In this document: one piece after another, positions 6,164 to 60,155 of the stretch | Position numbering within the stretch: the first letter of the stretch is position 1 | Layout of the letters: each line of letters starts with the position of its first letter | Source: an uncultured Gammaproteobacteria bacterium | Lineage (GTDB): Bacteria; Patescibacteriota; Patescibacteriia; UBA9570; XYC2-FULL-38-9 | Direction of reading: 5' to 3' | Length of the DNA stretch: 64,000 nt | NCBI GenBank assembly: GCA_964344485.1 | Contig: CAYFNF010000002.1 | Coordinates: 176,273-240,272, forward strand | Position numbers and translations under genes: made by a program | The notes under the pieces: generated by a model | Told to the model about the DNA's origin: nothing | Databases searched by the model: none | What the model saw: only the letters and a program-made list of their open reading frames with translations

Positions 6164-7453
6164 TTAAAATTCGACTGTTATATGCTCGGGCACGATCTCT
6201 ACCCACGTATTTCCACGCACAAGCGGGATTTCATCTCCATCCTCATCTAAGAATACTGTTCGGCTCTCTCTATCCTTCTTTTCCCATGTTCCAGTAGTAC
6301 GCACACCTTCGCGGATAACGTCGACAGTCCCCTCTCCCGTCACTGGCCAATTGATTCGTCCTTTTCCTTCAATTGGAATTCCAGCGCCGACGTGCTGAAC
6401 AATGATATTACGTGTGGTGAGTACTTTACCTGTTACTGCATCAATATGATCGATCCCGCCGTTTTTTCGCGTGTAATACAATTCATCCACGTCGTAGTTG
6501 AATTCTACATCATATGAACCTCCAAAACCGATGTACACTCTGGTACTCACTACATCTTGCTCCTGATCCACCGCCTCTTCAGTGAGCTCACCTTCTGACT
6601 CTTCATTGCTTACTTCAGCTTGTTCGGGTTGCTCTATCTCATCAACAAATAACCAAGACTCAAAATCAGGTGGTTCTTCTTGATCCCAACCGTGAGCGCG
6701 TATTGCGTCTTCCAGCTTCGATGTCGATGTAAAGAAGTTATGCGGTGCTGCTTTGCCGGACTGTCTCCAGAAAAAGGACGGCTCGCGCAGCCCATCTACA
6801 TCTCTCATACTAAATCGTTGTAGCGCTTGCATCGCAGTAAAACTCCCACCTGCGTGATAGTATGCACAGTCCATCTCAGATGCAAATTCCAAATAGGTAT
6901 CTCGTGCTGATCGTACTGGACCAACGGTATCACTTTGCTCGCCCGCAAACACTGCCATAAATCGTGTAATTCCACCTTCTACTATTACTTCGTACATCAC
7001 CAACGCTTTGGACAAGCCAGATTGTGGCCGCACACCACCGAACGCTGCGTTTTCAATCATGACACATGCTGGGACATTATTCGCTTCTTCGCGATCAACG
7101 ATAATACCATCCAGTTTTCTTGGGATTGTTGCTGACAGTTCTTCATCCTCATCATCTTCAAACAATTCAGATATGACTGGAGTGTCAAAAAACGTGCTTG
7201 CTAAAAACGACTTCACACCGGCAACTGCAAGAACGATGTTCACTCCGGCAATAATCAGTATTAAAAAAGACACGATGCTAATGACAAGTATCTTTTTCTT
7301 GTGTGTACGAAAAAAAGATTCCTTCGACTCTACTTCTTTTTCTTTCTTGGGTTGTTCCTCTTTGTTTTTTTTGGACTGCGTTTCTGCTTTTTTTGCTTGT
7401 TCTTTGCTTTCCTTTTTTTCGTCCTTTTTCGTTGAGTTCTTTTTAGTAGCCAT
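6164..7453 (-). CDS. DUF3048 (YerB-like) family protein, membrane-anchored, paralog A
   Basis: N-terminal K/E-rich tail plus a TM helix. Conserved GGITRFMAVFAG and GPVRSARDTYLEF blocks are shared with the adjacent paralog and are typical of DUF3048. Confidence 0.55.
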   Translation of the reverse strand: MATKKNSTKKDEKKESKEQAKKAETQSKKNKEEQPKKEKEVESKESFFRTHKKKILVISIVSFLILIIAGVNIVLAVAGVKSFLASTFFDTPVISELFEDDEDEELSATIPRKLDGIIVDREEANNVPACVMIENAAFGGVRPQSGLSKALVMYEVIVEGGITRFMAVFAGEQSDTVGPVRSARDTYLEFASEMDCAYYHAGGSFTAMQALQRFSMRDVDGLREPSFFWRQSGKAAPHNFFTSTSKLEDAIRAHGWDQEEPPDFESWLFVDEIEQPEQAEVSNEESEGELTEEAVDQEQDVVSTRVYIGFGGSYDVEFNYDVDELYYTRKNGGIDHIDAVTGKVLTTRNIIVQHVGAGIPIEGKGRINWPVTGEGTVDVIREGVRTTGTWEKKDRESRTVFLDEDGDEIPLVRGNTWVEIVPEHITVEF

Positions 7454-7456
7454 ACA

Positions 7457-8578
7457 TTAATTATACTCTATTGTATGATCTTCTGGAAGCACCTCAATCC
7501 AGATGTTTCCGGGAATAAAAGAGAATTCATCTTCTTGATCAGTAAAAAAGCGTGTTCGCTCTGCTTCTTCCTTTTTCCACGTACCGCTCGTTGCTCGACC
7601 GTTATTAAAGAACACTGCTGATCCCTCCCCTTGCGTATCAATCTGTAATCGACCGGTATCCGCTTCCAATAGACTGGTTGGAGCGTACATACACACAATA
7701 TTTCGTACTGATAGTTGCTTACTTGAAAGTGCATCAGTATGGGGCTCACCACCATTACTACGTAGATAGTGGTTTTCATCTCGATCATAGACATACTCTA
7801 CATCGTAACTATAGCTAGAAAAATTCAGCGAAATCTTCTTCTCTTCTTTTGGTCGCTCTTTTTTCTTTAACTGCTTCTCAAAACGCCATGGTGTATACGT
7901 GCCAATTACCTCGTCACCTTTTTTATCTCTCATTGCATAGCCTAATAGCTCAGATGACGTAAATACGTTGTGCGGTGCTGAAAGGGATTGCTCTCTCCAA
8001 AAATATGCGTGATCACCACTAATTTGATCTAGATCTTCTATATACTCATTACCGTATAACTGAGATAGCGCTTGTGGACTGCCACCAACGTGCGCATACA
8101 TTCCTTCATATTCTTCTGCCCAATCCACATAATACGGACGCGCAGAACGTACTGGTCCAATTGATGATATCTCTTCACCACCAGCGTATACTGCAAGAAA
8201 GCGTGTAATCCCACCCTCTGCAAGAGCCTCATACACTACCTGTGCGTTCTGCAATCCGGATTGTGGTCGCACGGATACTAGATTCTCAATCATTACTCCT
8301 ACTGGATAGATATTCTCTTTACCAAATTCAACTTCTACTCCATCGATAAAGCGTGCTACTTCAGCAGAAGGAACATCGTCAGGCTCTTGGTTTGTTAGTT
8401 CTACAACCGCAGTCTGATCTTGTTCAGCCGAATCGAGATTTAATACGGTGACTCCGATACCCACAACTACCACAACAATCAGCAGTATTACAATAGCGGC
8501 AACTAGTTGATATTTCTGGTTCTCTTTAAGAGAAGTAAACATAGAACGCATCAACTCGTTGAATGATTTCTTTTTCAT
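7457..8578 (-). CDS. DUF3048 (YerB-like) family protein, membrane-anchored, paralog B
   Basis: GGITRFLAVYAG and GPVRSARPYYVDW blocks pair with 6164..7453. The two genes are in tandem. Confidence 0.55.
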   Translation of the reverse strand: MKKKSFNELMRSMFTSLKENQKYQLVAAIVILLIVVVVVGIGVTVLNLDSAEQDQTAVVELTNQEPDDVPSAEVARFIDGVEVEFGKENIYPVGVMIENLVSVRPQSGLQNAQVVYEALAEGGITRFLAVYAGGEEISSIGPVRSARPYYVDWAEEYEGMYAHVGGSPQALSQLYGNEYIEDLDQISGDHAYFWREQSLSAPHNVFTSSELLGYAMRDKKGDEVIGTYTPWRFEKQLKKKERPKEEKKISLNFSSYSYDVEYVYDRDENHYLRSNGGEPHTDALSSKQLSVRNIVCMYAPTSLLEADTGRLQIDTQGEGSAVFFNNGRATSGTWKKEEAERTRFFTDQEDEFSFIPGNIWIEVLPEDHTIEYN

Positions 8579-8596: not shown

Positions 8597-9325
8597 TTAT
8601 TCTTTCTTTTCTTCAGCAGGCTCTTCTTGTTCCTTTTCCTGTGCGGCTTCACCCTCTTCAGCTCCTTCACCTTCTGCTTCATCCTCTTCAGCTCCTTCTT
8701 CAACTTCTACGCTGTCTACATCCTCGACTACATCCTCTTCAAGTGCTTGTAACTCTTCCTCACTTCGAGGTTCAGAGACTGATACCACTGTTTCTTCTGC
8801 ATCATGAAGTGCCTCCACACCTTCAGGTAATTGGAGGTCTTTAATGCGGATCATATCATCAAAGGTCTTGAGTCCATCTAATGAAACCACAATATTTTGC
8901 GGAAGGTCTTTTGGTAGACATTCGATTTCAAGCGAAGACGCATTCTTTACCACGATACCGCCAAGCTCTTTCTCTGCTGGAGCCAGGCCAGTGAATTCAA
9001 TCTCGACTTCTGTTTTCAGTTTCTCACCCATCTTTACCTGATAAAAGTCGATGTGAGTAATGTCATCCGTCAATGCATCTCGCTGCACTTCTTGGATAAT
9101 AACTTTGACTGGCTCTTGCTCATCTACAACTAAATCAATTAACGAGCTCTCTCCGACCGAAGAGTACACTTTCATAAATAATGGAAAATCCATCTCTAAT
9201 GGTTGAGTTTCAATCTCAGAACCATATATCACGGCGGGAATCTTCTTTTCTTCGCGCGTTTTCTTAGAATTCAACCTTCCAGTTGCATCCCGTTTTTTCG
9301 CTTGTAATATTGTTGCGTCCGACAT
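8597..9325 (-). CDS. rplY: Ribosomal protein L25 / general stress protein Ctc, with an acidic C-terminal tail
   Basis: The N-terminus (ILQAKKRDATGRLNSKKTREEKKIPAVIYG) is the L25/Ctc signature. There is an E/A-rich C-terminal extension. Confidence 0.8.
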   Translation of the reverse strand: MSDATILQAKKRDATGRLNSKKTREEKKIPAVIYGSEIETQPLEMDFPLFMKVYSSVGESSLIDLVVDEQEPVKVIIQEVQRDALTDDITHIDFYQVKMGEKLKTEVEIEFTGLAPAEKELGGIVVKNASSLEIECLPKDLPQNIVVSLDGLKTFDDMIRIKDLQLPEGVEALHDAEETVVSVSEPRSEEELQALEEDVVEDVDSVEVEEGAEEDEAEGEGAEEGEAAQEKEQEEPAEEKKE

Positions 9326-9374
9326 AGTATACTGTATTCATTTATAATTAATAACGCATAAATGCGCCTGAAAA

Positions 9375-9403
9375 AGTATAGGAAATATTGGTTTTTTTGT
9401 CAA
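9375..9403 (-). promoter_or_regulatory. Sigma70-like promoter for rplY: TTGACA, 17-nt spacer, TATACT
   Basis: On the minus strand the sequence reads TTGACAaaaaaaccaatatttccTATACT, about 50 nt upstream of the rplY ATG. The -35 hexamer overlaps the stop codon of the upstream SEDS gene. Confidence 0.55.
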
Positions 9404-10482
9404 TCTGTTGGTCTACCAGCAGCATGAGCAATACCAAGAAGCAAAATTGTCATAACTAATGAGGAGCCGCCTGCACTTAACAACGGAAGTGGAACGCCGG
9501 TAACTGGCAGTACCCCAAGATTCATGCCTATGACGAGTATGCTCTGCACTCCAAGGTATCCAACCGTCCCGAGAATTAATAAAAAGCTATAATTATCTTT
9601 GACTTGGCTCATCCACACCCAAAGACGGAAAAAAAGAATACCAAAAGCAACAAAGAGCACAGTGATACCGAGGAATCCAAACTCTTCAGCGATGACTGCA
9701 AAGATGAAGTCAGAGCTCGCCTCAGGCAGAAAGTGTAACTGACTCTGTGTTCCAAACCCTAATCCCCTTCCCCAAAATGATCCTGAACCGATTGCCACAA
9801 TAGATTGAGAGATATTATATCCTGCTCCAAGCGGATCATTCTCTGCATGCAGGAACGTGGTCAAGCGTTCTTTCTGATAGTCTTGAAAGATAAAAAACCA
9901 CCCGATCAATCCGCTGACGATCACTCCGGCAATCACTGTTCCGATAATCCATTTTGGTGATTTCAACGCGATAAGAAAGATACACCAGATCGAAAAGATG
10001 ATGAACGCAGAACCTAGGTCGGGCTGTAGAAAAATTAATCCGCACAGAATCAGTGTGACCACTCCGGTGATAGCAGCGTATTTTTTCTGTTGTAGCAGCG
10101 CTGGATCTTTTTCAACGTACGCTGCCATAAATAGAATGAACAACAACTTGACGAACTCAACTGGTTGAAATGATGCACCGCCAATAATGAACCAGCCAGT
10201 AGTGCCGCGCACTGTGGTACCAAATAGTAATACAGCGATGAGCAACAGTACCGCGACTATTACATATAACGCGGCATGAGTTTTAATCACTCGATAGTTT
10301 CCAACTGTGATTGCGGCAAAACCGACCAACCCGATGATCGCAATAACTAGCTGCTTAGAAAAATGCTGCCCTATACTATACTGGGCTAATAATCCTAGTC
10401 CAATTAAAAACAGCACTGCCCCCACAAACCACCAATCAACTACTGCAGCGCTGGCTCTGCTTTTCTCAATAAACTGTCTCAT
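9400..10482 (-). CDS. SEDS-family peptidoglycan glycosyltransferase (FtsW/RodA/SpoVE)
   Basis: Ten TM helices, with the conserved C-terminal block GVLPVTGVPLPLLSAGGSSL. Confidence 0.85.
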   Translation of the reverse strand: MRQFIEKSRASAAVVDWWFVGAVLFLIGLGLLAQYSIGQHFSKQLVIAIIGLVGFAAITVGNYRVIKTHAALYVIVAVLLLIAVLLFGTTVRGTTGWFIIGGASFQPVEFVKLLFILFMAAYVEKDPALLQQKKYAAITGVVTLILCGLIFLQPDLGSAFIIFSIWCIFLIALKSPKWIIGTVIAGVIVSGLIGWFFIFQDYQKERLTTFLHAENDPLGAGYNISQSIVAIGSGSFWGRGLGFGTQSQLHFLPEASSDFIFAVIAEEFGFLGITVLFVAFGILFFRLWVWMSQVKDNYSFLLILGTVGYLGVQSILVIGMNLGVLPVTGVPLPLLSAGGSSLVMTILLLGIAHAAGRPTD

Positions 10483-15659: not shown

Positions 15660-16859
15660 ATGACTAAAACAAAGAAGAAAGACACGCCGCATATCTCTAC
15701 TACAAAAACCAAACGAAAAGCATCTATAGCGAACTCTCGCATTGAGAAGTACTACAACAAAATCGTCATCGGATTCGTTGTGCTCACTTGTATTCTCGTG
15801 TGTGCAATTGTCTACTTTTCTTTTTCAAATACAACTATCACCGTGACCCCAGCACAGATCCAAAGCGATCTCTCATTTGTCACAAGCGTGAGTGAATTGT
15901 CAGCAACGGTCGTATTCACTGATGTTGAAGGAAGCAAAACCATTACTAATATTCAAAGTTCAGAGTCGAAACCAGCAAAAGCAACTGGAACTGTCACTAT
16001 TATCAATAACTACTCTCAAAATCAACCTCTAGTAGAAACCACGCGCTTACTATCAAAAGAAGGAGTGTTATTTAGAACTCAAGAGACTGTTACAGTCCCG
16101 GCCGGAGGGTCGGTCGAAGTCCCGGTCATGGCTGATGAAGAAGGCGCAAAAGGTAATATCGATGCATCTACGTTCGAGATTGTTGCGCTCTGGGACGGAC
16201 TCAAGGACGATATCTATGCTGAAAGCGATTCCGCAATGACCGGCGGGCTAGTTAATGTCGGCGTCGTCAGTCAAACAGACATTGCTAATGCTCAAGAAGA
16301 ACTGGAAAACGATCTGACCACCCAAGCTCTGGAAACACTTAACCAGGAGATACAGGATACCGAAGGTCTACCAGCTGAACCGTATATCCCAACAAATGCA
16401 TACCGTATTACCTCTGTCACAGAAGAATCATCGGTTCAAGGCGGTGAAGAGGTCGATAACTTTGAAGTACATGCAACTATGACAGTCGCAGCAGTCGTGG
16501 TCAACAAACCGGATTTCATTACATAGATCCAAACAAAAAGCGACGAGGCAATCCCAGAAGGCATCGCAGCAAAAAGCGCAATCGTGTTAAGCGAAGTACA
16601 AGGCACTGTCGGTGAATTGGAGCTCGACAATACCGAAGCAGAAGTCACGTTCTCTATCACCATACCAACAATTATTGACGAGGAGAATGAAGTATTGAAC
16701 GCTGAGTCGCTCACCAATATGTCAGCGCAAGAAGTGGATGCCTATCTCACTGCATTTGATGAAATCCAGGCAATACAAGTAGAGTTCTCTCCATTTTGGG
16801 TCACACGCACACCGAGCTTATCAAAGAATATCACTGTTGATATTGCGCGCACGCAGTAA
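15660..16859 (+). pseudogene. Hypothetical membrane-anchored protein interrupted by one in-frame TAG (16524..16526). Either a pseudogene or a read-through/recoding candidate.
   Basis: ORFs 15660..16526 and 16584..16859 are in the same frame. Translation continues directly after the TAG (…KPDFIT*IQTKSDEAIPEG…) with similar composition. Confidence 0.5.
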
Positions 16860-18945: not shown

Positions 18946-19707
18946 ATGCGAAGCGATCTACCACAACGACTGCGCGCTCATGAGCTCGCAGCAATTCCAG
19001 GACATACTGGACTTAACAGAACCAAGATAATTGATGGTGCGCGATATTTTGTGATTGAAGCTATTGGAAATGAAATTGTAGGGCCACGAGGAAGTCAGTG
19101 CGGCAGCACTGCACTGCCAGTTGTTGGCTTATATCGTGTTGATGAAACGACTGCACGAGACTTAATTGAAGACCCTGTAACTGGGGAAATGCGCAGAAAG
19201 AGAACTCATGAGTTAGATGTAGAGTTAGTTCCAGAAGCGGAATTCACTGCGTTAAAAGAACATATTGAGGGTAGTCGCCAAACATCTGAGTCAAGACCAG
19301 ATAGCGCAGTAGGACGTAGAATTGGCGGAAGAAGGCGTACGGGTGCCGCTCATGCTCAAGAAGATGGAATGATTGACCATTTGGACCGCAAACGAGGTGC
19401 AGGACGCGCAGACAGAATTCTACTCGATTATGAACAATCAATTCCGGATGGGCCGCTTGATAAGTTGCCTGGTAGAGAGCCTGCTCAAGGCCCAATTGCA
19501 TGGGACCGTGAATTGGATGGCGGAGTTAAAGAGCGACGACGAGGTGGGGTCATTAGAAGACGACCACCGAAAGAAGCAGCTGCAGCACTTGATGAATCTG
19601 ATGATGCAACCGTTACAGAATTACCCGTCCCAGACGAAGAACCAGAGGTACGACCGGACGATAATAGACCACAAGACATTCCTCGACCAAGACGACAAGC
19701 TCGATAA
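18946..19707 (+). CDS. Hypothetical Arg/Asp/Glu-rich protein
   Basis: 253-aa ORF with locally elevated GC (about 50%). No recognisable domain. Confidence 0.4.
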   Translation: MRSDLPQRLRAHELAAIPGHTGLNRTKIIDGARYFVIEAIGNEIVGPRGSQCGSTALPVVGLYRVDETTARDLIEDPVTGEMRRKRTHELDVELVPEAEFTALKEHIEGSRQTSESRPDSAVGRRIGGRRRTGAAHAQEDGMIDHLDRKRGAGRADRILLDYEQSIPDGPLDKLPGREPAQGPIAWDRELDGGVKERRRGGVIRRRPPKEAAAALDESDDATVTELPVPDEEPEVRPDDNRPQDIPRPRRQAR

Positions 19708-42085: not shown

Positions 42086-43543
42086 TTATTTGCTGCACTT
42101 AGCTTGAGTCACGGCATTCTGCCAACCATCGATCAGTTCTTTTCTTTTCGCAGTATCTATGGATGGAGTAAACATTCTTTCGTGCTGCTGTTTTTGCGTG
42201 AGTGTAGCCAATGAATCCCAAAAACCACTATGCAACCCCGCAAGCATTGCTGCGCCACGAACAGTGGTTTCGATATCCTTTGGTCGAGTCACTGTCCGGT
42301 GCAGAATATCAGCTTGAAACTGTAGTAAAAAGTCATCACGCGCTGCCCCGCCGTCAACAAATATAGTACGCAGTGAACTCCCTGAGTCTTTCTCCATTGC
42401 ACGCACTAAATCATGCACTTGATATGCCGTAGATTCTACTGCGGCACGAATGATGTGCTTCTTGTTTGCGCCACGTGTCAATCCAGTAAGCACTCCACGC
42501 GCGTCTGGCTCCCAATGCGGAGCTCCAAGCCCTGTAAATGCAGGTATGAAATAGACGCCATTTGTATCCGGGACGGATGCGGCTATAATGCCGCTCTGTT
42601 TTGAATCGTCAATCATCTCGAGCTCATCTCGTAACCACTGCACTACAGCACCACCAACAAATACCGAACCTTCAAACGCATACACCGGTTTTCCGTTTGC
42701 ATCTGGTGTCAACGTGGTAATCAATCCATTCTTTGAACGTAAAAACTTCTTTCCGATATTCATGAGTAGAAAACATCCAGTTCCGTACGTATTCTTTGCG
42801 TCTCCTTTACGCACCGCTCCCTGACCAAAAAGCGCTGCTTGCTGGTCTCCGGCCACTCCTGTAATGGGAATACCTTGATACTCACCGAAAAGATCTTGTG
42901 ATTGTCTCACTTCAGGCATCATGTGCTCAGGAATATTGAACAAGTTCATCAATTTACTATCCCACTGATGAGAGCGAATATTGTAGCACATGGTCCTTGA
43001 AGCATTGGTGAAATCCGTTACATGCTCAGCTCCTTGCGTCATGTTCCAAATCAACCAACTATCGATGGTGCCGAATAACAAATCACTCGTGCTGCCGGAG
43101 TAGTTACGTAACAACCACTGAATCTTTGTCCCAGAAAGATATGGATCGATTGGTAGCCCAGTTTTATTTCTGATTTCATTTTCATTTCCGGCGTTTTTCA
43201 GTCGATCACATAGATCAGCAGTTCGTCGACACTGCCAGACGATCGCATTATGAATCGGCTGCCCAGTCTTCTTATCCCACACTACTGCAGTTTCTCGTTG
43301 ATTCGTAATACCAATTGCTGCAACTGATTCTTCTTTTTCTCGAAGCACTCTATTGAGCAGCTTCTGAGTTACTGCCCATATCTCTTGGGCATCGTGCTCC
43401 ACCCAACCTGGCTGTGGATAGTGCTGAGTGAACTCCTGCTGTGCTTTCTGTATAACGGAAAGATTCTTATCATAACAGACTACTCGCACACTCGTGGTAC
43501 CAGCATCTATTGCAATGATATACTTTTTCTTTCTCATGGGCAT
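42086..43543 (-). CDS. glpK: Glycerol kinase
   Basis: FGGY-family motifs (YIIAIDAGTTSVR…, …GGGAARDDFLLQFQADI). The likely start is the Met at 43543 or 43537; the track ORF extends to 43633. Confidence 0.9.
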   Translation of the reverse strand: MPMRKKKYIIAIDAGTTSVRVVCYDKNLSVIQKAQQEFTQHYPQPGWVEHDAQEIWAVTQKLLNRVLREKEESVAAIGITNQRETAVVWDKKTGQPIHNAIVWQCRRTADLCDRLKNAGNENEIRNKTGLPIDPYLSGTKIQWLLRNYSGSTSDLLFGTIDSWLIWNMTQGAEHVTDFTNASRTMCYNIRSHQWDSKLMNLFNIPEHMMPEVRQSQDLFGEYQGIPITGVAGDQQAALFGQGAVRKGDAKNTYGTGCFLLMNIGKKFLRSKNGLITTLTPDANGKPVYAFEGSVFVGGAVVQWLRDELEMIDDSKQSGIIAASVPDTNGVYFIPAFTGLGAPHWEPDARGVLTGLTRGANKKHIIRAAVESTAYQVHDLVRAMEKDSGSSLRTIFVDGGAARDDFLLQFQADILHRTVTRPKDIETTVRGAAMLAGLHSGFWDSLATLTQKQQHERMFTPSIDTAKRKELIDGWQNAVTQAKCSK

Positions 43544-44094
43544 TACCACGGTGAATCTTTTATCTTTAACCAGTATCCGATGTGATTCACTAAAATATGA
43601 AAGAAAATTCCAATTGAGATAATCAACACCCACATTAATAATGTGATGTCGAAGAATAGCATTGCTACTACTGTGGAGCCAACGAGAAAATCTATCTGAT
43701 CGAAGGGAAACCAGGTTTTTCCAGGCGCAACAGCGATGCGTCGCTTAAAAAATGATTTAATAAGATCTCCCAAGAGCGCTCCAGCTGCAAATACGAAACC
43801 AAACCACACCGGTACTTCCGTAATATCAAACGGTGTCCATGAAACAGTTTGTGGATAGATGACTGCTGCTCCGTATTGTACAATAAATAACAAGCCACCC
43901 ATGATAGTACCAACAATTAGCCCTCTCCATGTTTTATGAGCTCCAAAGAGCGGCTGCTTGGCAAACGTTGCGCCACCGTCAACTGGTTTCGCTAAAAAGT
44001 GCAGCGTATCTTTAAATAACACTGGAGACATATTCGCTAAACCAGTTGGGAGATAGAAGTAAAAAAGTTTTGCAATGAGAATAAAAACAAACAT
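43543..44094 (-). CDS. Small polytopic membrane protein, CTP-transferase-like (CdsA/CarS-related)
   Basis: Five to six TM helices. The GAHKTWRG and KRRIAVAPGKTWFPFDQIDFL blocks resemble cytidylyltransferase-family signatures. It sits next to glpK, consistent with glycerolipid metabolism. Confidence 0.4.
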   Translation of the reverse strand: MFVFILIAKLFYFYLPTGLANMSPVLFKDTLHFLAKPVDGGATFAKQPLFGAHKTWRGLIVGTIMGGLLFIVQYGAAVIYPQTVSWTPFDITEVPVWFGFVFAAGALLGDLIKSFFKRRIAVAPGKTWFPFDQIDFLVGSTVVAMLFFDITLLMWVLIISIGIFFHILVNHIGYWLKIKDSPW

Positions 44095-50190: not shown

Positions 50191-50261
50191 ATCAGACGCT
50201 GCTTTAACACTACAAAATTATACACGTGTGGACACGTCGCACATAGTATAACATTTTTTAG

Positions 50262-50298
50262 AAAAAAAAACAGCCTCGCTGTCACGCTGATGTGACAG
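50262..50298 (-). terminator. Intrinsic terminator at the 3' end of the GC-rich foreign gene
   Basis: The minus strand reads CTGTCAC-atcagc-GTGACAG followed by CGAGGCTG-TTTTTTTTT, 25 nt after the stop codon. Confidence 0.7.
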
Positions 50299-50322
50299 GG
50301 GCCTTGTAGCGATTGTTGCGTC

Positions 50323-51573
50323 TCAGTCCTCCACCTCCGGGAGGTCCGGCATCCAGCCTTCTGCTTGGCACTGCCCGAACTCGAACGGGATGCCCGTGTC
50401 CAGGCACTGGAGCTCGCCCATGCAGTGACGGTCGTACATGCAGGGCTGCCCGCGCGCGACCTTGCCGTGCACCCCGTGGCGATCGTAGAAGTCCTTCTCG
50501 AACGCCGGGGTCTGGTGGTACCGATGCTGGTTCCACCGGATCCAGAGCTCGTGGTCTCGACCGACCGGTGGGGCCTTGAGCCACTTGCGGTACGGCTGAC
50601 CCGGGACGTGCTCCGTCAGGTAGCGAGCGAGCTGCTCGCCGCTGTCCACCGCGTACTCCACGTACTCGTCGCCGTCGGCGTCGAGCACCAGTACAGGTGG
50701 CGGTGGCAGCTCCGTGTCCTCGGTGAGCACCAGGATCTCGTCCTCGGGCGCGACGTAGAAGTAACCGGAGTAGAAGAAGTCACCTCGTTCCACGGTGTAC
50801 GGCGGACCGAAGCCCTTGTTGAACTGCCGTAGTGCCTTCTTCTTGCCCGGGCTTCTCGCCGGACCGTCCAGGACCAGGTCGTCCCCGATCCGGACGCCGC
50901 GGAGCACCTGGGGCTTGGGCATGGTCTGCACGCGCCGCAGGTCCTCGGTCCGGACCTCGAGGTCGTTCGAGATGTCGGTCAGGTACTCGGAGCCCCACGG
51001 CTGTCCGTCGAAGACCCACAGGTCGGTGCCGAGTTCGCGCGGGATCCATGCGTTCGAGACCGGGTCGGCCTCCACGGGCTGCGGGAAGACATTCTCGGGC
51101 GGGGAGCCCAGCACCAGTTCCTCGGGCGGCACGTACGGGACGCGCATGTGAGTGCCCGGGATGGTGAGTCCACCACAGCTTGCGGGTCGACGGTCGTCGA
51201 GCTCCCGGACCACGTGACCGAACCGGTTGACCAGGTAGCCCGGGACCGGATCGTTGTCCGGACCAGCGTCGTGGAAGCACGGGTGGTGGTGCTCGTGGTG
51301 ATCCTGCTGCCAGACGCAGTGGCCCCACTCGATGCGGATCGAGCGGCCTTCGGGCAGGGTCTCGAGGCAGTAGCCCGAGCGGCACTGGCTGTCCACCTGA
51401 CACTGTGCTCCGATGGCCAGGTTGTGGGTGGTGCCGATCGCCGCGTCCCGGGTGTAGCCCTCGTACCGGTAGCCGTCCCAGGACCGTTCGCGGATGTGCA
51501 CGGACATCGAAGCCGCGCATCCACAGATGCAGAGCATCAACGCAACGCTCGCGAGTGCGTAAGTCTTACGCAT
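50323..51573 (-). CDS. Compositionally foreign (about 66% GC) secreted protein. Signal peptide, two terminal 4-Cys knots, a His-rich patch and an acidic Pro-rich core. No family recognised.
   Basis: The ATG at 51573 is preceded by GGAGGTGGAGGAGGA with a 6-nt spacer. The N-terminus MRKTYALASVALMLCICGCAAS is signal-peptide-like. Cys patterns are QC-x5-C-x4-C-x15-C near the N-terminus and PC-x5-C-x5-C-x11-C at the C-terminus. It also has HHEHHH and PPPPVLVLDADGDEY segments. The track's 434-aa version begins at an upstream non-ATG codon. Confidence 0.7.
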   Translation of the reverse strand: MRKTYALASVALMLCICGCAASMSVHIRERSWDGYRYEGYTRDAAIGTTHNLAIGAQCQVDSQCRSGYCLETLPEGRSIRIEWGHCVWQQDHHEHHHPCFHDAGPDNDPVPGYLVNRFGHVVRELDDRRPASCGGLTIPGTHMRVPYVPPEELVLGSPPENVFPQPVEADPVSNAWIPRELGTDLWVFDGQPWGSEYLTDISNDLEVRTEDLRRVQTMPKPQVLRGVRIGDDLVLDGPARSPGKKKALRQFNKGFGPPYTVERGDFFYSGYFYVAPEDEILVLTEDTELPPPPVLVLDADGDEYVEYAVDSGEQLARYLTEHVPGQPYRKWLKAPPVGRDHELWIRWNQHRYHQTPAFEKDFYDRHGVHGKVARGQPCMYDRHCMGELQCLDTGIPFEFGQCQAEGWMPDLPEVED

Positions 51574-51777
51574 GTCGCTTCCTCCTCCACCTCCGAAAAG
51601 CTCGAAGGTGTTCGTGTCGAAGTACAATCGATTCTTGCTACAGCAAAAGCACCCAAAGAGTGAACCTCTGCAGTAACAAGAATCTACATTAAAATACCGG
51701 CCTCTTTAGAGCTAAAGAGACACTATAAAATAGCAGTATTTTCCGTTTTTGTCAAACCGTATGAGCAAGACTATTCA

Positions 51778-54768: not shown

Positions 54769-57597
54769 TTATCGGACTCCTGGAGCTGGCCCAGAACCGA
54801 CTTTAATAAACTTTCCTAATGCGCTCTTTGCTGCTGAACCTGGAGAGACTTTTCCGTAGTCCGGATCGTCTGCAATGATATGTCCGTATCGCCGTAGCAT
54901 GCGTACTCCTTTATCAATGTCCCTATTCACTGCAGCAAATTCATCAGTACCTGTTAGACCCTGGCGCATCATCTCGTCACGTACTTCACGCAATGACGCG
55001 AGTAACTGAATATCTTGATGAGCATCTTGAATACGACCAGTCGCTTCTTCTATCGGAATTCCGAAGTTACGAGCGATGATCTCTTCGTGTTCAGGACCGA
55101 GTAAATCAACTGCATCATCTATTGGTACTCGTCCATGATACTCTATCTTTATTCTACCACCTCGTTCTGTAAAGGAAGCCATCACATTATCACTAGTGAA
55201 TGTTCCGCTGTCCTCTAACGCTGCACGCGCTTCTGCGATCTCTGCTGGGTCAAGTTCCACGTCAATATCTAATGCATCACGTTGTGCTTGAGCTGCGAGT
55301 TCAGCGGCTTGTACTGCTTCTTGCCTCTCTGCGAACCGCTCTATATCACCGGCGACTTGCTCTCCAGCAAATTCCCGGACTCGCTCAGCGCGGGGTATAG
55401 ACGGGTCATAATCCGGCAAGTAATCACTTTCTCGCGGAAGCGGCACTTCGTCTGGATGCACACCTTCATCTCCCCACCCAGCTATACCTTTCTTTGCATG
55501 ATACTCAGGAATATCTAACGCACGGTTTAACGCTTCACCGGGTGCTTTGATAATGTCTGCTGGAGTTGGGAGATCTCTGGTTGGCATGCGTCGTGCTCTG
55601 CGTATTGCTCGATCTGCTTCATCTTCAAAAAACCCAGTAGCTTGCGGGCCGGTATCCGTAGCAGGAACTTCAGTGCCATCTACTACAACAGCATCTGGGC
55701 CCCCGTCTAATCCGGTTACGTCAATAACACCGCCTTCCGCATGCATTTGATCTAGCATATCAGCTGACAGCGTGCTAGCGTGCGGAGGCTCTGGAAGCTC
55801 CACTGCATGTGGCGGCTCTCCAGGTGGGCCTTCTTGGAATAGGACTTCTGTTGCACCAGATGGACCGCCGCTCATTTCAATTCGCAATTTTCGTATATTT
55901 CCTTGAGCGTAGTACGCGGCATCCATTTCACCAGAACGAAGAGCAGTGGTTTCAATTCTCTGTGCTTCATCTAGCTCAGCTTGCATTTCATCTACTGTCA
56001 CTGTGCCGTCACGATACCCTGCTATCAATTGATCGCATCGTTCGGTTTGTGCAGCAGCAATTCCACGTAGCTCATCTAAATATGTATCATGCATATCACT
56101 CATTAGTTCTTGCGGTGTTGTTCCTGAATACTCTGTAACTCGCCCATCAGAGTCTATGACTGACATAAAGAGTGAATTCCCGTCTGACCGAAACTCTACT
56201 TGTTCTGTTATACCTAATCCATGTGGAAAGTCTTCGGATGAAGAGGTAATGAATGACGCGTAGCGCTGATCTCCGATCATTAAATAGCCATCATCTGATA
56301 TATCCATTCCCATCTCTCTCATCTGGGCAGCTGCATCGCTAGTAATATTAAAATCCACCCCATTGATCGTCTCTTGTTGAGTAAAGACTGCTTCGCGACG
56401 AATATCTGGTGCGTTTCTATCAACAGTACGCGGTTCATCCTCAGGTTGAACTGGTACATCATCAGGGAGGTCATCTCCACCTGTCTCACCTAGATCCGGA
56501 TCGTGCACCTCACCTGGGTCTACTTGCGCGACACCATCGAGCTCTGCATCATCCTCTAAAAAAGCTGCAGCTGAGCTATCCGGCAAGTCTTCTGGTGGAA
56601 GTGGAGTATTCATGACTGTCTCACCACCATCAACCAACGGCTCATCCACTGCAATGTCTGCTGGAAGGTGCGGAGTTCCTTCGACTGGAGTTACTGCTGG
56701 GCCGGCGACTCCAGCATCAAGTTCAGGTTCTGGAACAGGCACATCAGGCTCAAGCTCACCAAGCATAGTATCGCCACCAGGGAGCTCATCAACGTCCATG
56801 GCTACTGCCTCTCCATCACCTACTGCGACGTGTCTTATTTCAATATCACCATGGTCTCCAAGTTCAGCTGCTGCGTCCGCTTGAGAACGGAGTAATTGCC
56901 CTCCAACTGATCTAACTTCTTTTCCGTACGTGGCTGCAGGTGATGCAACATCATCAGTCAATGCCTCAGCAGCTTGCGCTTCTCCGATAAATAGTTTTCC
57001 AGCTGTACCAACAACTCCACGAACCATCTCAGCGTATAGACCAGACCCGAATGCTGCACCGACAGTGGTTGCCCATAAACGCAATCGCTCATCCTCACGT
57101 GCTGCTTGTTCTCGTACTACCACAATACGATCAGATTCTGCTTGTAGTAAGTCCGCTAACGCATCGCTCATTTCATCAGCGCGTTCAGCTTGCTGCTCTG
57201 GTAGCTGTTCATTCAAGTGATGGATCCGCTCTTCTCGCAACTGAATCATGAGTGGATTATCTCCCATTTGCTGTCCATTCAACTCTCCCCATGCAAGCAG
57301 AGTGTCCATATGCTCCTCTACTTCATCTGGGGTAAGATTCTCTACGCCTTTAGCTTTCGCAATAGCTTTCTCTACACCACTTATACGTTTTTTTGAACGC
57401 TTCTCATACGACGCCATGCCCATGGTGCCGCCAGTCATCAATCTTCGTCCCAAGTACAGCCCACCAAGCACGCCAGCGCCTGCGCCCGTTAATGCAGCAA
57501 CTGTCACTCCAGCAAGCACTCCTTTCTTAATTAAATTCTGTACAGTAAATTGATTTGCAATAACTTTGCCAATTTTTCCTTTTGGCTGCCACTTCAA
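54769..57597 (-). CDS. Large acidic membrane-anchored hypothetical protein (first of a five-gene cluster)
   Basis: 942 aa with an N-terminal TM helix (VLAGVTVAALTGAGAGVLGGLYL) and D/E/P/A/G-rich low complexity. The C-terminal ~250 aa are paralogous to 59088..60155 and end …VGSGPAPGVR. Apparent TTG start overlapping the upstream stop (TTGA). Confidence 0.6.
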   Translation of the reverse strand: MKWQPKGKIGKVIANQFTVQNLIKKGVLAGVTVAALTGAGAGVLGGLYLGRRLMTGGTMGMASYEKRSKKRISGVEKAIAKAKGVENLTPDEVEEHMDTLLAWGELNGQQMGDNPLMIQLREERIHHLNEQLPEQQAERADEMSDALADLLQAESDRIVVVREQAAREDERLRLWATTVGAAFGSGLYAEMVRGVVGTAGKLFIGEAQAAEALTDDVASPAATYGKEVRSVGGQLLRSQADAAAELGDHGDIEIRHVAVGDGEAVAMDVDELPGGDTMLGELEPDVPVPEPELDAGVAGPAVTPVEGTPHLPADIAVDEPLVDGGETVMNTPLPPEDLPDSSAAAFLEDDAELDGVAQVDPGEVHDPDLGETGGDDLPDDVPVQPEDEPRTVDRNAPDIRREAVFTQQETINGVDFNITSDAAAQMREMGMDISDDGYLMIGDQRYASFITSSSEDFPHGLGITEQVEFRSDGNSLFMSVIDSDGRVTEYSGTTPQELMSDMHDTYLDELRGIAAAQTERCDQLIAGYRDGTVTVDEMQAELDEAQRIETTALRSGEMDAAYYAQGNIRKLRIEMSGGPSGATEVLFQEGPPGEPPHAVELPEPPHASTLSADMLDQMHAEGGVIDVTGLDGGPDAVVVDGTEVPATDTGPQATGFFEDEADRAIRRARRMPTRDLPTPADIIKAPGEALNRALDIPEYHAKKGIAGWGDEGVHPDEVPLPRESDYLPDYDPSIPRAERVREFAGEQVAGDIERFAERQEAVQAAELAAQAQRDALDIDVELDPAEIAEARAALEDSGTFTSDNVMASFTERGGRIKIEYHGRVPIDDAVDLLGPEHEEIIARNFGIPIEEATGRIQDAHQDIQLLASLREVRDEMMRQGLTGTDEFAAVNRDIDKGVRMLRRYGHIIADDPDYGKVSPGSAAKSALGKFIKVGSGPAPGVR

Positions 57598-58397
57598 TAC
57601 ATATGGGCCAAATTTACTCCACCTAAATCTTTATACAGTTGATATATAGGCGCAGCGTCTGCAAACTGCTCTTGTGCGCGAGCATCAGCAAGTGCGATCT
57701 GTTCATGGACCGCTGCATCCACGCTATCTGCCATGAGTTCTGCGCGAGCTTCATCGTACTGCTCTTCTGCTTCAAATCGATCTACCATCGCAGCGTATTT
57801 GTCTTCAGCTCCTTTACCGCGCAGCATTCGGCCCAAATCTTGTTTAAAGAATCCTCGAATACCTTTACTTCGTTTCTCGGTAGTATCTGCTTGAGCTAAG
57901 CGCTGTCGTGCTTCATGGAGCTCTACTGCACGACCACCCTCTTCTGCGCCCCGATGTTCATCTAATAGCATTTGATATCGCTCTTGTGCTTCAGCGAGCT
58001 CATCTTTCACTTGCTCATGCTGCCACTTCTTTTCACGAGAAAAAAGTGCAGAGACACGTAGCTTTCTTCGTTCCGCTTCTTTTTGTGCAATTAATCGCTT
58101 TGCTGCGTCTATCTGTAAAACTAAACTTTGCTCGGCTGATAATGAGTGTGTATACACGGTCTCTATGGTTTGTTGCTCCGGAGGCTCCACTGCAACATCT
58201 GCTGCTGTGGCTTCTGCTATGACGTCTGCGCCCTCTCCGCGCACCTCTTCACCCATATCATGAGCACGACCCACCATCTCATCAGCAGCGTTGTCAACTA
58301 CTTCCAATGTTAACTCAGGACCATCCGGCTCCACCTCCGGTGGAACGTCGGGTTGTCGCTCTGCCTCCGCTTCTCGTCGTCGTGCGGGATCGCCCAT
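57594..58397 (-). CDS. Acidic coiled-coil hypothetical protein
   Basis: 267 aa, E/R/A-rich with predicted coiled coil, tightly linked in the cluster. Confidence 0.5.
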   Translation of the reverse strand: MGDPARRREAEAERQPDVPPEVEPDGPELTLEVVDNAADEMVGRAHDMGEEVRGEGADVIAEATAADVAVEPPEQQTIETVYTHSLSAEQSLVLQIDAAKRLIAQKEAERRKLRVSALFSREKKWQHEQVKDELAEAQERYQMLLDEHRGAEEGGRAVELHEARQRLAQADTTEKRSKGIRGFFKQDLGRMLRGKGAEDKYAAMVDRFEAEEQYDEARAELMADSVDAAVHEQIALADARAQEQFADAAPIYQLYKDLGGVNLAHMY

Positions 58398-58403
58398 ATG
58401 ATT

Positions 58404-58760
58404 TTAACTCGTCTGACTTAGTGTATTTTTTATCTCGTCAATTTTCTTCTGGTCTATTCTGGATCGAATATGTGAAATCACATCTTGTTGTTGTTTTTTC
58501 AGTTGCGTGATTTGTGCATGGAATTCGTTGAACGCATTTGTCATCTGCTCTAAACAGTCGCGCAAATCTTTCTGCTCTTGCTCTTTTTCGTTTGGTTGTT
58601 CAGCTGAAGGTGCCTGCGGTGGTGATTGCTGCTGGGGAGTCGCCTGAGGCTGCGCTGGTTGTGGTGGTACTCCTTGCTGAGCAGGTGCTTGAACAGTAGC
58701 GACCGGTTGCTGCGGCGCCTGTTGAACTGGTTGTGGTGGTACCCCTTGCTGGACAGTCAT
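58404..58760 (-). CDS. Gln/Pro-rich small hypothetical protein with a C-terminal coiled coil
   Basis: N-terminal QQGVPPQPxQQ repeats, then a helical segment. Confidence 0.45.
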   Translation of the reverse strand: MTVQQGVPPQPVQQAPQQPVATVQAPAQQGVPPQPAQPQATPQQQSPPQAPSAEQPNEKEQEQKDLRDCLEQMTNAFNEFHAQITQLKKQQQDVISHIRSRIDQKKIDEIKNTLSQTS

Positions 58761-58764
58761 AGTG

Positions 58765-59067
58765 TTATTTTTTTGCCGAGGTCATTAACTCTTGCTTCAT
58801 CTGTTGAATCTCCTCAAGGATAATCTCAGGTAAATTTGGAACATGTTGTAGCACTACTTTCATCTGCTCTTCTTCTCCTAATCCTTGCATCTGCTGTAGT
58901 GTCTGCTCGGTCTGCTGCTCTGGAATCGCTGCCATCACTCGCAACATCACACGCTTGTGAATGAGTTCATTCATTTGTTGAAGCATCTGAAGCTTTCGCT
59001 CTTCAGGTAGATTTGCTAAGCCAAGTTCGACAAATATATTTCCTTGAACATATGTAGTTGCAGACAT
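58765..59067 (-). CDS. Small Gln/Glu-rich helical hypothetical protein
   Basis: 100 aa, with a 4-nt gap to its neighbours. Confidence 0.45.
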   Translation of the reverse strand: MSATTYVQGNIFVELGLANLPEERKLQMLQQMNELIHKRVMLRVMAAIPEQQTEQTLQQMQGLGEEEQMKVVLQHVPNLPEIILEEIQQMKQELMTSAKK

Positions 59068-59087
59068 ATGAAAATATTACTTATGAA

Positions 59088-60155
59088 TTATCTTGGTGCT
59101 GGGCCAGACCCAGTTTGAATAAGTGCTTTGGCTTTTTGCGCATCAGACTGCTCGCCGTATCGCGGATCATCAAATATCACGTGGCCTGCACGTCGAGTGA
59201 TCTGCTGTAGTAGTCGCTCGGCTTCAGCCACAACTGCTTCGTACTCCTTTGTGTCGTGTAGTCCTTGGGCCAACATTGCATCACGGACTTGTAAGAGAAA
59301 TGCCAACTGTCCGCACTGTAACTCTACTTGTGCAATCAGCGTGCTGAGCTCCCCACGACCTAAGCCAGTAGTTCGAGCCATTACTTGTTCATAATTGTTC
59401 GGTCCTTCTGTTACTAACAATCTACTTCTTCCAAGCTCTACTGCTCGAGCAAGTGAATCGTCTGATTCATAGTCTCCTAACCATTCAGTGATGCGTGCTT
59501 TTTTCTTTCCGACTTTAAAAGCTAATCCGTGCTCTCCAACTGTAAATGTTCCAGACGTTGCTAGTTGATCATGTGCTGCTTGAACCGCTGCTGCGTCTAA
59601 GCCTGCAGGTGGTTGCAACGCTGCTTCTTGTGCTGCTAATGCAGTGCGTGCAGCGAGCAACTCTTCTTGCTGCTCTGTGAGCTCTGCTGCTTGCTCTGCT
59701 CCGCGCTCTGCACGATGTTCTATGCGACGGTCTTCGAGAGGTACTCCTGGCTCAACATCAGGCAATGTGTCACGAGGCTCTGGTACTGGTACATCCTCTG
59801 GACCCATACCCTGGTCCGTCATACTAGCTACTCCTTTATGTGCTTGATACTCTGCTTGATCCAATCCTCGATTCACTGCATCATCCGCAGCACGGATTCC
59901 TCCAGCTACTGCCTCTCCCACGTCTTGAAGCGACCCTGGATGCTCTGCTCGTTTCACGCGTTTTTTTGCCTGATCGACAAAAAGACCAGTTGCGCGTCGT
60001 ACGTCATCTTCTAGCATTTCGCCTGATTCTACGCCTCTGGCAGCAGTTCCGTCACGAGGCTCCTCAGCGAATGCAGGGCTAGAAGTTGCTGCAGCAAGAG
60101 TTGCTGCTAGCCCTATTCTTCGTAATGGATGCATTCTTCCACGCCGTCTAGCCAT
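59088..60155 (-). CDS. Secreted hypothetical protein, paralog of the C-terminal module of 54769..57597
   Basis: N-terminal signal peptide (MARRRGRMHPLRRIGLAATLAAATSSPAFA). Shared blocks include NRGLDQAEYQAHKGV (~NRALDIPEYHAKKGI), ATSGTFTVGEHGLAFKVGKKKARITEW (~EDSGTFTSDNVMASFTERGGRIKIEY), and VRDAMLAQGL…RRAGHVIFDDPRYGE…GSGPAPR (~VRDEMMRQGL…RRYGHIIADDPDYGK…GSGPAPGVR). Confidence 0.6.
   Translation of the reverse strand: MARRRGRMHPLRRIGLAATLAAATSSPAFAEEPRDGTAARGVESGEMLEDDVRRATGLFVDQAKKRVKRAEHPGSLQDVGEAVAGGIRAADDAVNRGLDQAEYQAHKGVASMTDQGMGPEDVPVPEPRDTLPDVEPGVPLEDRRIEHRAERGAEQAAELTEQQEELLAARTALAAQEAALQPPAGLDAAAVQAAHDQLATSGTFTVGEHGLAFKVGKKKARITEWLGDYESDDSLARAVELGRSRLLVTEGPNNYEQVMARTTGLGRGELSTLIAQVELQCGQLAFLLQVRDAMLAQGLHDTKEYEAVVAEAERLLQQITRRAGHVIFDDPRYGEQSDAQKAKALIQTGSGPAPR

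Follow-up and report, generated by a model that had tools for sequence, protein, structure and literature searches.

The window analysed here is a 64-kb stretch of DNA from a Patescibacteria genome (contig CAYFNF010000002.1), and it carries one protein-coding gene, hereafter X, whose guanine-plus-cytosine (GC) content stands far above that of its surroundings. X lies on the minus strand; its upstream neighbour encodes a UvrD/PD-(D/E)XK helicase-nuclease, and a gene for a 138-aa membrane protein, pheS, pheT, gyrB and a CarS-like gene follow downstream. In 200-nt windows, GC is 0.40-0.44 before about 50280, 0.65-0.69 from there to about 51600 and about 0.41 after it. The rest of the window varies from 0.36 to 0.50 in 1-kb steps, and ~50280-51600 is the sole stretch that rises more than 0.15 above the window median (0.43, standard deviation 0.047). 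An earlier reading of these letters without database searches (the sequence-only reading) had placed a jump in GC at ~50275 and a drop at ~51600, and the sliding-window profile over the 64 kb agrees with both.

Many spurious open reading frames (ORFs) occur in the GC-rich segment, and X was taken as the true reading frame because of its codon periodicity. GC at its first, second and third codon positions (GC1, GC2 and GC3) is 0.69, 0.44 and 0.87, compared with a GC3 of 0.27-0.47, mostly about 0.40, in the other 48 ORFs of the window. Codon usage of X is actinobacterium-like when compared with the window ORFs, and GC skew across the gene is near zero. The GC3 difference and the protein homologs described below confirm the earlier claim of a real, compositionally alien gene. 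The open frame extends upstream to a TTG at 51627, giving a 434-aa version with an in-frame G5S stretch. This version was rejected, since the homologs begin at MR(K/N) and the Shine-Dalgarno (SD) sequence is positioned for the ATG; the ATG start is also supported by the N-terminal alignment of four homologs.

X has its own promoter, leader, SD and terminator (Table 1), and its proposed status as an independent transcription unit stands. The sigma70-type promoter that had been predicted next to the helicase-nuclease stop codon was found immediately past it, with 10 of 12 consensus matches. The textbook SD and the GC-rich hairpin with its run of nine T were also recovered where they had been described. 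The leader is strongly folded, with a minimum free energy of -68.5 kcal/mol (z = -4.0; 0 of 200 shuffles equally stable). Its hairpins comprise one at 51721-51700, a long one with arms at 51684-51669 and 51645-51630, and a third at 51610-51588 in which CACCUUCGA is paired with the first SD copy. With this anti-SD-like CACCUUCGA sequestering the first SD copy, the leader could be a translational control element. Neither leader nor ORF gave an Rfam match at the gathering threshold or at E <= 1.

The SD core is absent in 38 of the 49 window ORFs, as the description of the native genes as SD-poor had implied, and the sole 6-mer match is that of X. Independently of X, a TAnnnT (-10-like) box lies at most 16 nt upstream of the start codon in 15 of the 49 ORFs, which suggests that leaderless or near-leaderless mRNAs are widespread in this Patescibacteria lineage.

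The 13-mer TCCTCCACCTCCG occurs at 50327-50339 and again at 51583-51595, so that both copies reported at the ends of the cassette are present. Such a pairing at those positions appeared in only 1 of 5000 shuffles, which speaks against the view that chance would supply it. The pair is not found in any of the three orthologous loci, and a general duplication junction, as had been suggested, was thus rejected.

Table 1. Coordinates of gene X, its expression signals and the elements of its predicted product within the 64-kb window
Feature	Coordinates	Strand	Details
Sigma70-type promoter of X	51727..51755	-	TTGACA 51755-51750, 17 nt, TG-extended TATTTT 51732-51727
5' leader of X	51574..51726	-	about 150 nt; AT-rich (GC 0.35-0.45), strongly structured
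Double SD	51580..51594	-	GGAGGTGGAGGAGGA; 6 nt ahead of ATG; only strong SD of the window
Gene X	50323..51573	-	416 aa, stop codon included; GC 0.67, GC3 0.87, four-fold-site GC 0.83
Predicted lipoprotein signal peptide	51517..51573	-	MRKTYALASVALMLCICG, then C; lipobox Cys is residue 19
N-terminal four-Cys module	51316..51402	-	C58-x5-C64-x4-C69-x16-C86; invariant motif C-x2-DSQC-x-SGYC...G-x-C
His-rich patch	51268..51300	-	HHEHHHPCFHD; holds family-invariant H93, H95, C99, H101, D102
C-terminal four-Cys module	50368..50442	-	C378-x5-C384-x5-C390-x11-C402; long forms only (window X, P0121)
13-mer direct-repeat copy	50327..50339	.	CGGAGGTGGAGGA on coding strand; within last codons of X; other copy, 51583-51595, forms SD
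Intrinsic terminator of X	50262..50303	-	GC-rich hairpin then T9; GC-rich tract ends here
Promoter of downstream membrane-protein gene	50245..50259	-	AAAAAATGTTATACT; boundary marker, outside X

Predicted product, homologs and genomic slot

The signal peptide is the sole hydrophobic stretch of the product (Kyte-Doolittle score over 15 residues of 2.37, compared with at most 0.67 elsewhere). By motif it is of the lipoprotein type, with MRK followed by YALASVALMLCI and by CG ahead of the lipobox Cys; a Cys at position -2 is atypical of the lipobox consensus [LVI][ASTVI][GAS]-C. Gly18 and Cys19 are invariant in all four homologs (ICGC in X; LAGC, NSGC and VTGC in the others). Thus the signal peptide claimed earlier is present, its assignment is refined to a lipoprotein signal by the invariant Gly-Cys, and export of the product remains the predicted outcome. 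Pfam scans that covered 30 of the 48 remaining window ORFs showed neither lgt nor lspA.

Mature X contains 10 Cys and 18 His and has a net charge of -25. The HHEHHH patch noticed earlier is present, as is the C-terminal C-x5-C-x5-C-x11-C module; the N-terminal module differs from its first description in the last gap, which is x16 and not x15. The region between the modules, described as Cys-free, contains C99 and C133, both invariant in the family. Alignment of the four homologs shows 45 invariant columns besides the lipobox Gly-Cys; VFD-x2-PWG, ND and G-x-G-x-PY-x3-RGD are among the invariant elements. The long forms (window X and P0121) carry about 130 extra residues with the second four-Cys module. 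C99 and C133 probably form a disulfide, and the H-x-H...C-x-HD motif is a possible metal site. From such motifs we infer a membrane-anchored, extracytoplasmic, disulfide-stabilised lipoprotein, which would be processed at the lipobox, exposed at the surface and possibly metal-binding. Its fast divergence suggests a role in surface binding, host contact or metal binding.

X gave nothing above threshold against Pfam, NCBIfam, PHROGs, PADLOC and PDB sequences and profiles, and the earlier failure to place it in a known family is borne out. The EB module (PF01683) scored 11.6 bits in X, below its 24.3 cutoff. Weak EB matches were seen in three of the four family members (best E = 0.0085), and prokineticin Bv8 appeared at E = 4.2, all of them sub-threshold. 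An HExxH zincin was rejected because the motif is not conserved among the homologs. A LAS or M23-type zinc peptidase was also rejected, given the reversed motif order (HxH ... CxHD) and no Pfam or NCBIfam match. With AlphaFold2, pLDDT was 34 when X was modelled by itself and 32 when the alignment of all four homologs was supplied, and the models are unusable.

HMMER, run exhaustively over 1.84 billion cluster representatives, detected just three homologs, all in related Patescibacteria. They are P0121 (424 aa, full length, 39% identity to X, E = 4e-44), P0122 (286 aa, 34%, E = 7e-9) and P0123 (276 aa, 28%, E = 4e-7), the last named "hypothetical protein [Patescibacteria group bacterium]" at NCBI. 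A word-indexed search of 5.8 billion proteins gave nothing with the single X sequence, and with a profile it only re-found P0123. No relative was seen when GTDB genomes, JGI metagenomes and IMG/VR were scanned with X peptides, and tblastn with X matched nothing in phage and plasmid collections. Neither ~15 billion proteins nor the collections of genomes, metagenomes, viruses, phages and plasmids yielded a donor lineage of high GC; gene callers miss X, which limits these negatives and makes three homologs a lower bound. Literature searches yielded no description of the X family or of persistently GC-rich genes in bacteria that belong to the candidate phyla radiation (CPR).

All three homologs occupy the slot that X occupies in the window, between the helicase-nuclease gene and the genes for the membrane protein, PheS and PheT. 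The loci come from Logan SRR27458548 (L033, which starts 68 nt upstream of its ATG), from JGI 3300037465 and Logan SRR12687342 (L034 and L035, two assemblies of the same sequence) and from NCBI GCA_042568075.1 (L036, which shares the window gene order as far as L11 and L1). A further contig of the SRR27458548 sample, L037, ends with the promoter and leader, and we infer that L037 and L033 are adjacent pieces of one genome. This genome is the closest relative of the window, with 74% identity in the helicase (L037) and 83% in the membrane protein (L033). The closest named matches of the window helicase belong to Candidatus Kerfeldbacteria and "Patescibacteria group", and the lineage was deduced from these names. 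A pattern-based search of GTDB with pheS reached matches of only about 45% identity, from mixed taxa.

In other relatives, whose helicase identity is 65-69%, the slot is empty or filled otherwise. Only 42-55 bp separate the helicase stop from the membrane-protein start in L023, L024-26 and L038. Unrelated genes of host composition take the place of X in L039 (261 aa, 8951-9736) and in the Kerfeldbacteria genome L040 (243 aa and 156 aa, 9052-10262). The slot is therefore a variable accessory region, or hot spot, with X as one occupant, and the accessory character claimed for X is confirmed. No mobility genes or conserved flanking repeats were found near X, its neighbours are housekeeping genes, and the 64-kb window has no tRNA. 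Among the usual signs of a horizontally acquired gene, X shows atypical composition (GC 0.67 vs 0.43; GC3 0.87 vs 0.40). It is not absent from its closest relatives, as L033/L037 and two others hold an ortholog in the same slot, and the search for a donor or for homologs outside the clade returned the three same-slot homologs only.

The protein collection searched includes PheS, GyrB and the helicase of the window, together with its membrane protein in a shortened call, all from one 317,746-bp NCBI contig. None of four start-codon versions of the X protein was found there. P0126, a 171-aa ORF that lies antisense within X (51148..51663, plus strand), is present from the same contig. This shows that the GC-rich segment is part of the public assembly and that the gene caller, faced with a GC-rich gene in an AT-rich background, took the wrong strand. 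The missing self-hit of X is explained in this way. Both flanks continue in conserved synteny. With the same arrangement in four independent assemblies and the ORF of the public contig, a chimeric assembly is excluded.

Composition, age and transcript folding of the orthologs

High GC is common to all members of the family. GC3 of X vs host is 0.87 vs 0.40 in the window, 0.76 vs 0.33 in L033, 0.89 vs 0.69 in L034 and 0.79 vs 0.44 in L036; at four-fold sites, the corresponding GC values are 0.83 vs 0.37, 0.73 vs 0.36, 0.89 vs 0.79 and 0.75 vs 0.42. C and G are about equally enriched at the four-fold sites of X, and GC3 > GC1 > GC2 holds in all orthologs. The protein is affected as well, with R/(R+K) of 0.65-0.93 in X vs 0.34-0.39 in the three AT-rich hosts. 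In the four genomes the tract of high GC begins about 40 nt ahead of the ATG and ends about 40 nt past the stop, GC3 is uniform along the ORF, and the leader upstream has host composition in the same comparison. No second GC island occurs in the window or in any related locus. The compositional anomaly thus belongs to the X family and not to the window genome alone.

The architecture of the unit is also shared. After the helicase stop, the same series of promoter, leader, SD, X, terminator and membrane-protein promoter is common to the window, L034/L035 and L036. A TTGAC[AT]-17/18-TAnnnT promoter follows the helicase stop in L034, L036 and L037; with about 85 nt, the leader of L034 is shorter than those of the window and L036 (about 150-170 nt). 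The ortholog SDs are strong (AAGGAGG in L033, AAGGAGA in L034, TGGAGGA in L036), and a hairpin with a run of 7-8 T stands 3' of X in L033, L034 and L036. The promoter and first leader hairpin of the window align with the end of contig L037. Genomes with an empty site lack the X promoter and leader, and the membrane-protein promoter, AAAA[AG]TGTTATAnTAT, is kept in all seven aligned loci (four with X, three empty). As a separate observation, the SRR27458548 assembly splits exactly between the AT-rich leader (end of L037) and the GC-rich gene (start of L033); this may reflect a GC-dependent drop in coverage or strain heterogeneity.

In a neighbour-joining tree of the helicase, membrane protein, pheS and pheT, the hosts form a star except for the group of the window and L033/L037 (99.5% bootstrap). 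Identity between X proteins is about 40% for the long forms (window, L033), 42% for the short forms (L034, L036) and 30-36% in cross-comparisons. These identities and the two length forms are congruent with the host grouping. Overall, X proteins are 30-40% identical among genomes, compared with 47-83% for the flanking genes.

Synonymous turnover between the window and its sister genome was measured as third-position identity at conserved four-fold codons. The values against random expectation were 0.28 vs 0.27 for the helicase, 0.35 vs 0.28 for the membrane protein and 0.23 vs 0.27 for pheS; that of X was 0.38 vs 0.31, near expectation. Synonymous sites in the flanks have reached saturation even between the window and its closest relative. 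If, as the shared promoter and leader indicate, X already existed in the ancestor of both genomes, every synonymous site has turned over since then. Four-fold-site GC of X is still 0.70-0.83 in genomes whose own sites are at about 0.35. An un-ameliorated recent import is at odds with these values. The "recent" acquisition proposed by the sequence-only reading is not supported, given X in the same slot of at least three other Patescibacteria genomes, in independent assemblies and each GC-rich relative to its host. Further points against it are the AT-rich promoter and leader shared with the closest relative, the saturated flanks, and no donor or mobility genes being found.

The folding of the X mRNA was compared with that of synonymous-codon permutations, which leave the protein, codon usage and GC3 unchanged. 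Under gene-wide permutation, z was -2.35 for the window, -3.34 for L033 and -3.59 for L036, with 0 of 40 permutations as stable in each case. With permutation confined to 50-codon blocks, z was -3.3, -3.25 and -3.4, respectively, with 0 of 36 as stable in each. The window mRNA is about 25 kcal/mol stabler than its permutations, and four host genes in the same test gave z = -0.76 to +0.48. Dinucleotide-shuffle z-scores for the ORF point in the same direction and are less trustworthy for coding sequence; as they are possibly biased, they were replaced by the permutations.

Proposed explanations for the GC-richness of X

We think it probable, with modest confidence, that X is an old, clade-restricted gene for a surface lipoprotein and that its high GC is under active maintenance, with selection on the transcript as the likeliest cause. 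X would count among the old accessory genes of a Patescibacteria (CPR) group resembling Kerfeldbacteria and would be a self-contained unit, from sigma70 promoter through AT-rich leader, SD and ORF to terminator, placed in the variable slot before the membrane-protein/pheST operon. Its GC-richness, from SD to terminator only, would have been kept in several lineages through synonymous turnover on host backgrounds of 36-46% GC. Selection on the transcript or the coding sequence would lead to a highly structured, presumably long-lived mRNA, and such an mRNA would in turn require an SD among host mRNAs that are SD-less and unstructured. Taken together, the folding excess, the confinement of high GC to the ORF, a strong SD kept in the orthologs and the folded leader suggest selection on the transcript; RNA structure or stability would then be what is selected. 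In a bolder form, which we offer tentatively as possible rather than probable, X would keep its GC 20-28 points above the genome (GC3 +0.35 to +0.47) in three AT-rich lineages by selection on the transcript as a large structured RNA, either a hyper-stable mRNA or an SD-dependent dual-function RNA. This could be termed "anti-amelioration".

Several observations weigh against selection on the transcript of an old gene. X of the GC-rich host L034 shows no folding excess (z = -1.0) and is only modestly above its host at four-fold sites, as would be expected of a family native to GC-rich relatives. The folding z-scores come from 36-40 permutations each, and the divergence is too great for covariation analysis of RNA structure. 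The shift from Lys to Arg and in amino acids generally resembles pervasive GC pressure and not selection on particular RNA helices. As for age, no other host clade exceeds 53% bootstrap, so vertical descent past the window and its sister is not demonstrated, and the adjacency of L037 and L033 is presumed. Equally close relatives with empty or otherwise filled slots imply several losses, or transfers, and only four X-bearing genomes (five loci) are known. In addition, the unusable structure models lend no support to a specific biochemical function.

Some of these points would suit recurrent lateral replacement, the main rival, which we regard as unlikely but worth serious weight. Here X cassettes would be imported repeatedly into the AT-rich members from GC-rich relatives (L034-like, ~60% GC) or an unsampled GC-rich reservoir, and each copy would be young. 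The slot is variable (L023, L024 and L038 empty; L039 and L040 with unrelated genes), X is patchy on a star-like tree, it is nearly native in L034 (four-fold 0.89 vs 0.79) without folding excess there, its amino-acid composition bears a GC signature of the whole-genome type, and donors could hide in a family that gene finders under-call. What argues against such imports is that the AT-rich promoter and leader are homologous in the window and its sister although X is only ~40% identical. Empty sites lack both elements, so that the unit was gained or lost whole with a non-coding part of host composition. Flanking proteins at 59-74% identity, with saturated synonymous sites, are too diverged for swapping by homologous recombination; no integrase, tRNA or conserved flanking repeats were found; and the long and short forms follow the host grouping. 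Donor composition also leaves the folding excess in three AT-rich hosts unexplained. Transfer in one recent event from a distant organism of high GC (an actinobacterial host, for example), with no amelioration as yet, would suit the extreme compositional contrast with actinobacterium-like codon usage, the strong SD in an SD-poor genome and the absence of X from several relatives. We consider it very improbable, since the sole homologs sit in the same slot of related Patescibacteria and no relative turned up when GTDB genomes, JGI metagenomes, IMG/VR and the phage and plasmid collections were searched. Moreover, orthologs at 30-40% identity with saturated flanks and a shared promoter and leader do not suit a recent event, and no mobility features were found.

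GC-biased gene conversion at a recombination hot spot, as in a vlsE-like locus, appears improbable to us. It would suit a product predicted to be a fast-evolving surface lipoprotein, and the equal enrichment of C and G at four-fold sites is what a strand-symmetric bias would give. Recombining bacterial genes have raised GC3, with non-optimal GC-ending codons as the driver (Lassalle et al. 2015, PMC4450053), and the break of the SRR27458548 assembly at the AT-to-GC transition hints at strain heterogeneity. Against it, neither silent cassettes of X nor partial copies or template repeats occur in the 64-kb window, and no related locus has a second GC island. Conversion tracts are also unlikely to respect an SD and a terminator next to an AT-rich leader, and in our judgement the excess of +0.33 to +0.46 in four-fold-site GC in three AT-rich hosts seems large for this process. 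That the segment is an artefact (a chimeric assembly or contaminant join) or a non-coding GC-rich structured RNA is hardly credible. GC-rich islands in AT-rich genomes are often structured RNAs, the X transcript is unusually structured, and the public gene call on the segment is a wrong-strand ORF. Yet four independent assemblies agree and their flanks are syntenic, codon periodicity is strong in all orthologs, and the proteins are recognisably homologous (E as low as 4e-44), with Cys, lipobox and other motifs in common. A structured non-coding RNA was rejected on the basis of this periodicity and homology and of the Rfam search, which was empty even at E <= 1.

Atypical GC and codon usage are widely taken as "recent HGT" (horizontal gene transfer), and the X locus is a case where this rule misleads. 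As the anomaly recurs past synonymous saturation, a local, ORF-limited force is needed. If selection on the transcript is that force, the compositional island would be a selected heritable trait and not the footprint of a transfer. The folding excess, strong SD and structured leader suggest a distinct mode of expression in ultra-small CPR bacteria, with a stable, structured and SD-dependent transcript. The product is a plausible host-contact or metal-binding factor of episymbiotic-type bacteria, and CPR surface biology is almost unknown. Calling of the wrong strand leaves the X family nearly invisible in protein databases, and similar GC-rich genes in AT-rich genomes may be systematically missed. 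X belongs to a family that is both new and uncharacterised, and as a compositional island it is of an unusual kind, with four genomes as evidence.

Other genes of the window and comparison with known systems

Several other ORFs of the window deserve mention. Upstream of the helicase gene, three consecutive ORFs of 942, 267 and 355 aa (54769-60155, minus strand) are rich in Ala, Glu, Asp, Arg and Gly, with GC1 of about 0.7, GC3 of about 0.33 and no Pfam match. The helicase is likewise preceded by large charged ORFs, without an assigned function, in L023 (815 aa), L024 (1965 aa), L039 (1647 aa) and L040 (888 aa). A 253-aa ORF at 18946-19707 (plus strand) is rich in Arg, Asp, Glu and Pro, with GC1 0.69, GC3 0.27 and no Pfam match. 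The helicase-nuclease homologs P0047, P0048, P0085 and P0109 are about 350 aa longer and have Hint/intein-type Pfam matches (PF14890, PF01079), which suggests intein insertions in this gene in other Patescibacteria lineages. The CarS-like gene beside gyrB (43543-44094, minus strand; CDP-archaeol synthase family, PF01864) keeps its position in L036 (8205-8765). Two tandem DUF3048 paralogs, each with N- and C-terminal domains, lie at 6164-8578 (minus strand), and a 288-aa ORF adjoining dnaE (15660-16526, plus strand) has a weak Baseplate_J-like match (E = 1.6e-7).

Compared with a classical acquired islet or ORFan undergoing amelioration, X is similar in atypical GC and codon usage, patchy distribution and accessory slot. 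The amelioration model for horizontally acquired genes is reportedly that of Lawrence and Ochman. X differs from such islets in being un-ameliorated despite saturated flanks, in occupying the same site in diverged genomes, in the failure to find a donor or mobility genes, and in an anomaly confined to the ORF, its own leader having host composition. X also resembles GC-rich structured RNA genes, which, as Klein, Misulovin and Eddy are said to have described in 2002, stand out in AT-rich genomes: it is a GC island in an AT-rich genome and its transcript is extra-structured. It differs from them in that it is protein-coding, as periodicity and homology indicate, and has no Rfam family.

The Borrelia vlsE/vls locus provides a further comparison. 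The vlsE antigenic-variation locus has about 50% GC in a genome of 28% GC, and X is likewise a fast-evolving, putative surface-lipoprotein gene far GC-richer than its AT-rich genome. X differs in having no sequence similarity to vlsE, no silent cassette array or repeats in the 64 kb and a GC skew near zero; when X was compared by blastn and tblastn with the remainder of the window, in search of vlsE-like silent cassettes, nothing meaningful was returned. A diversity-generating retroelement target was rejected too, as no part of X is repeated in the window and no reverse transcriptase occurs among the 30 Pfam-scanned ORFs, which include the ten nearest neighbours.

At the level of the protein, X shares with small disulfide-rich modules (EB PF01683, prokineticin/colipase/Dickkopf-type, WAP) the C-x5-C-x4-C...C spacing and a Gly before the last Cys. 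Those families are eukaryotic and the matches of X to them are sub-threshold, while the DSQCxSGYC signature is specific to the X family. X has no sequence or domain similarity to characterised lipoprotein families, and it is Cys-rich and acidic with 18 His. As in bacterial lipoproteins that are substrates of Lgt and LspA, such as E. coli Lpp, X combines a lipobox Gly-Cys signal peptide with no other membrane segment. E. coli Lpp is an abundant envelope lipoprotein with an unusually stable mRNA. X would resemble Lpp-like lipoproteins as well in its monocistronic unit, with its own promoter, a strong terminator and a transcript apparently built for stability.

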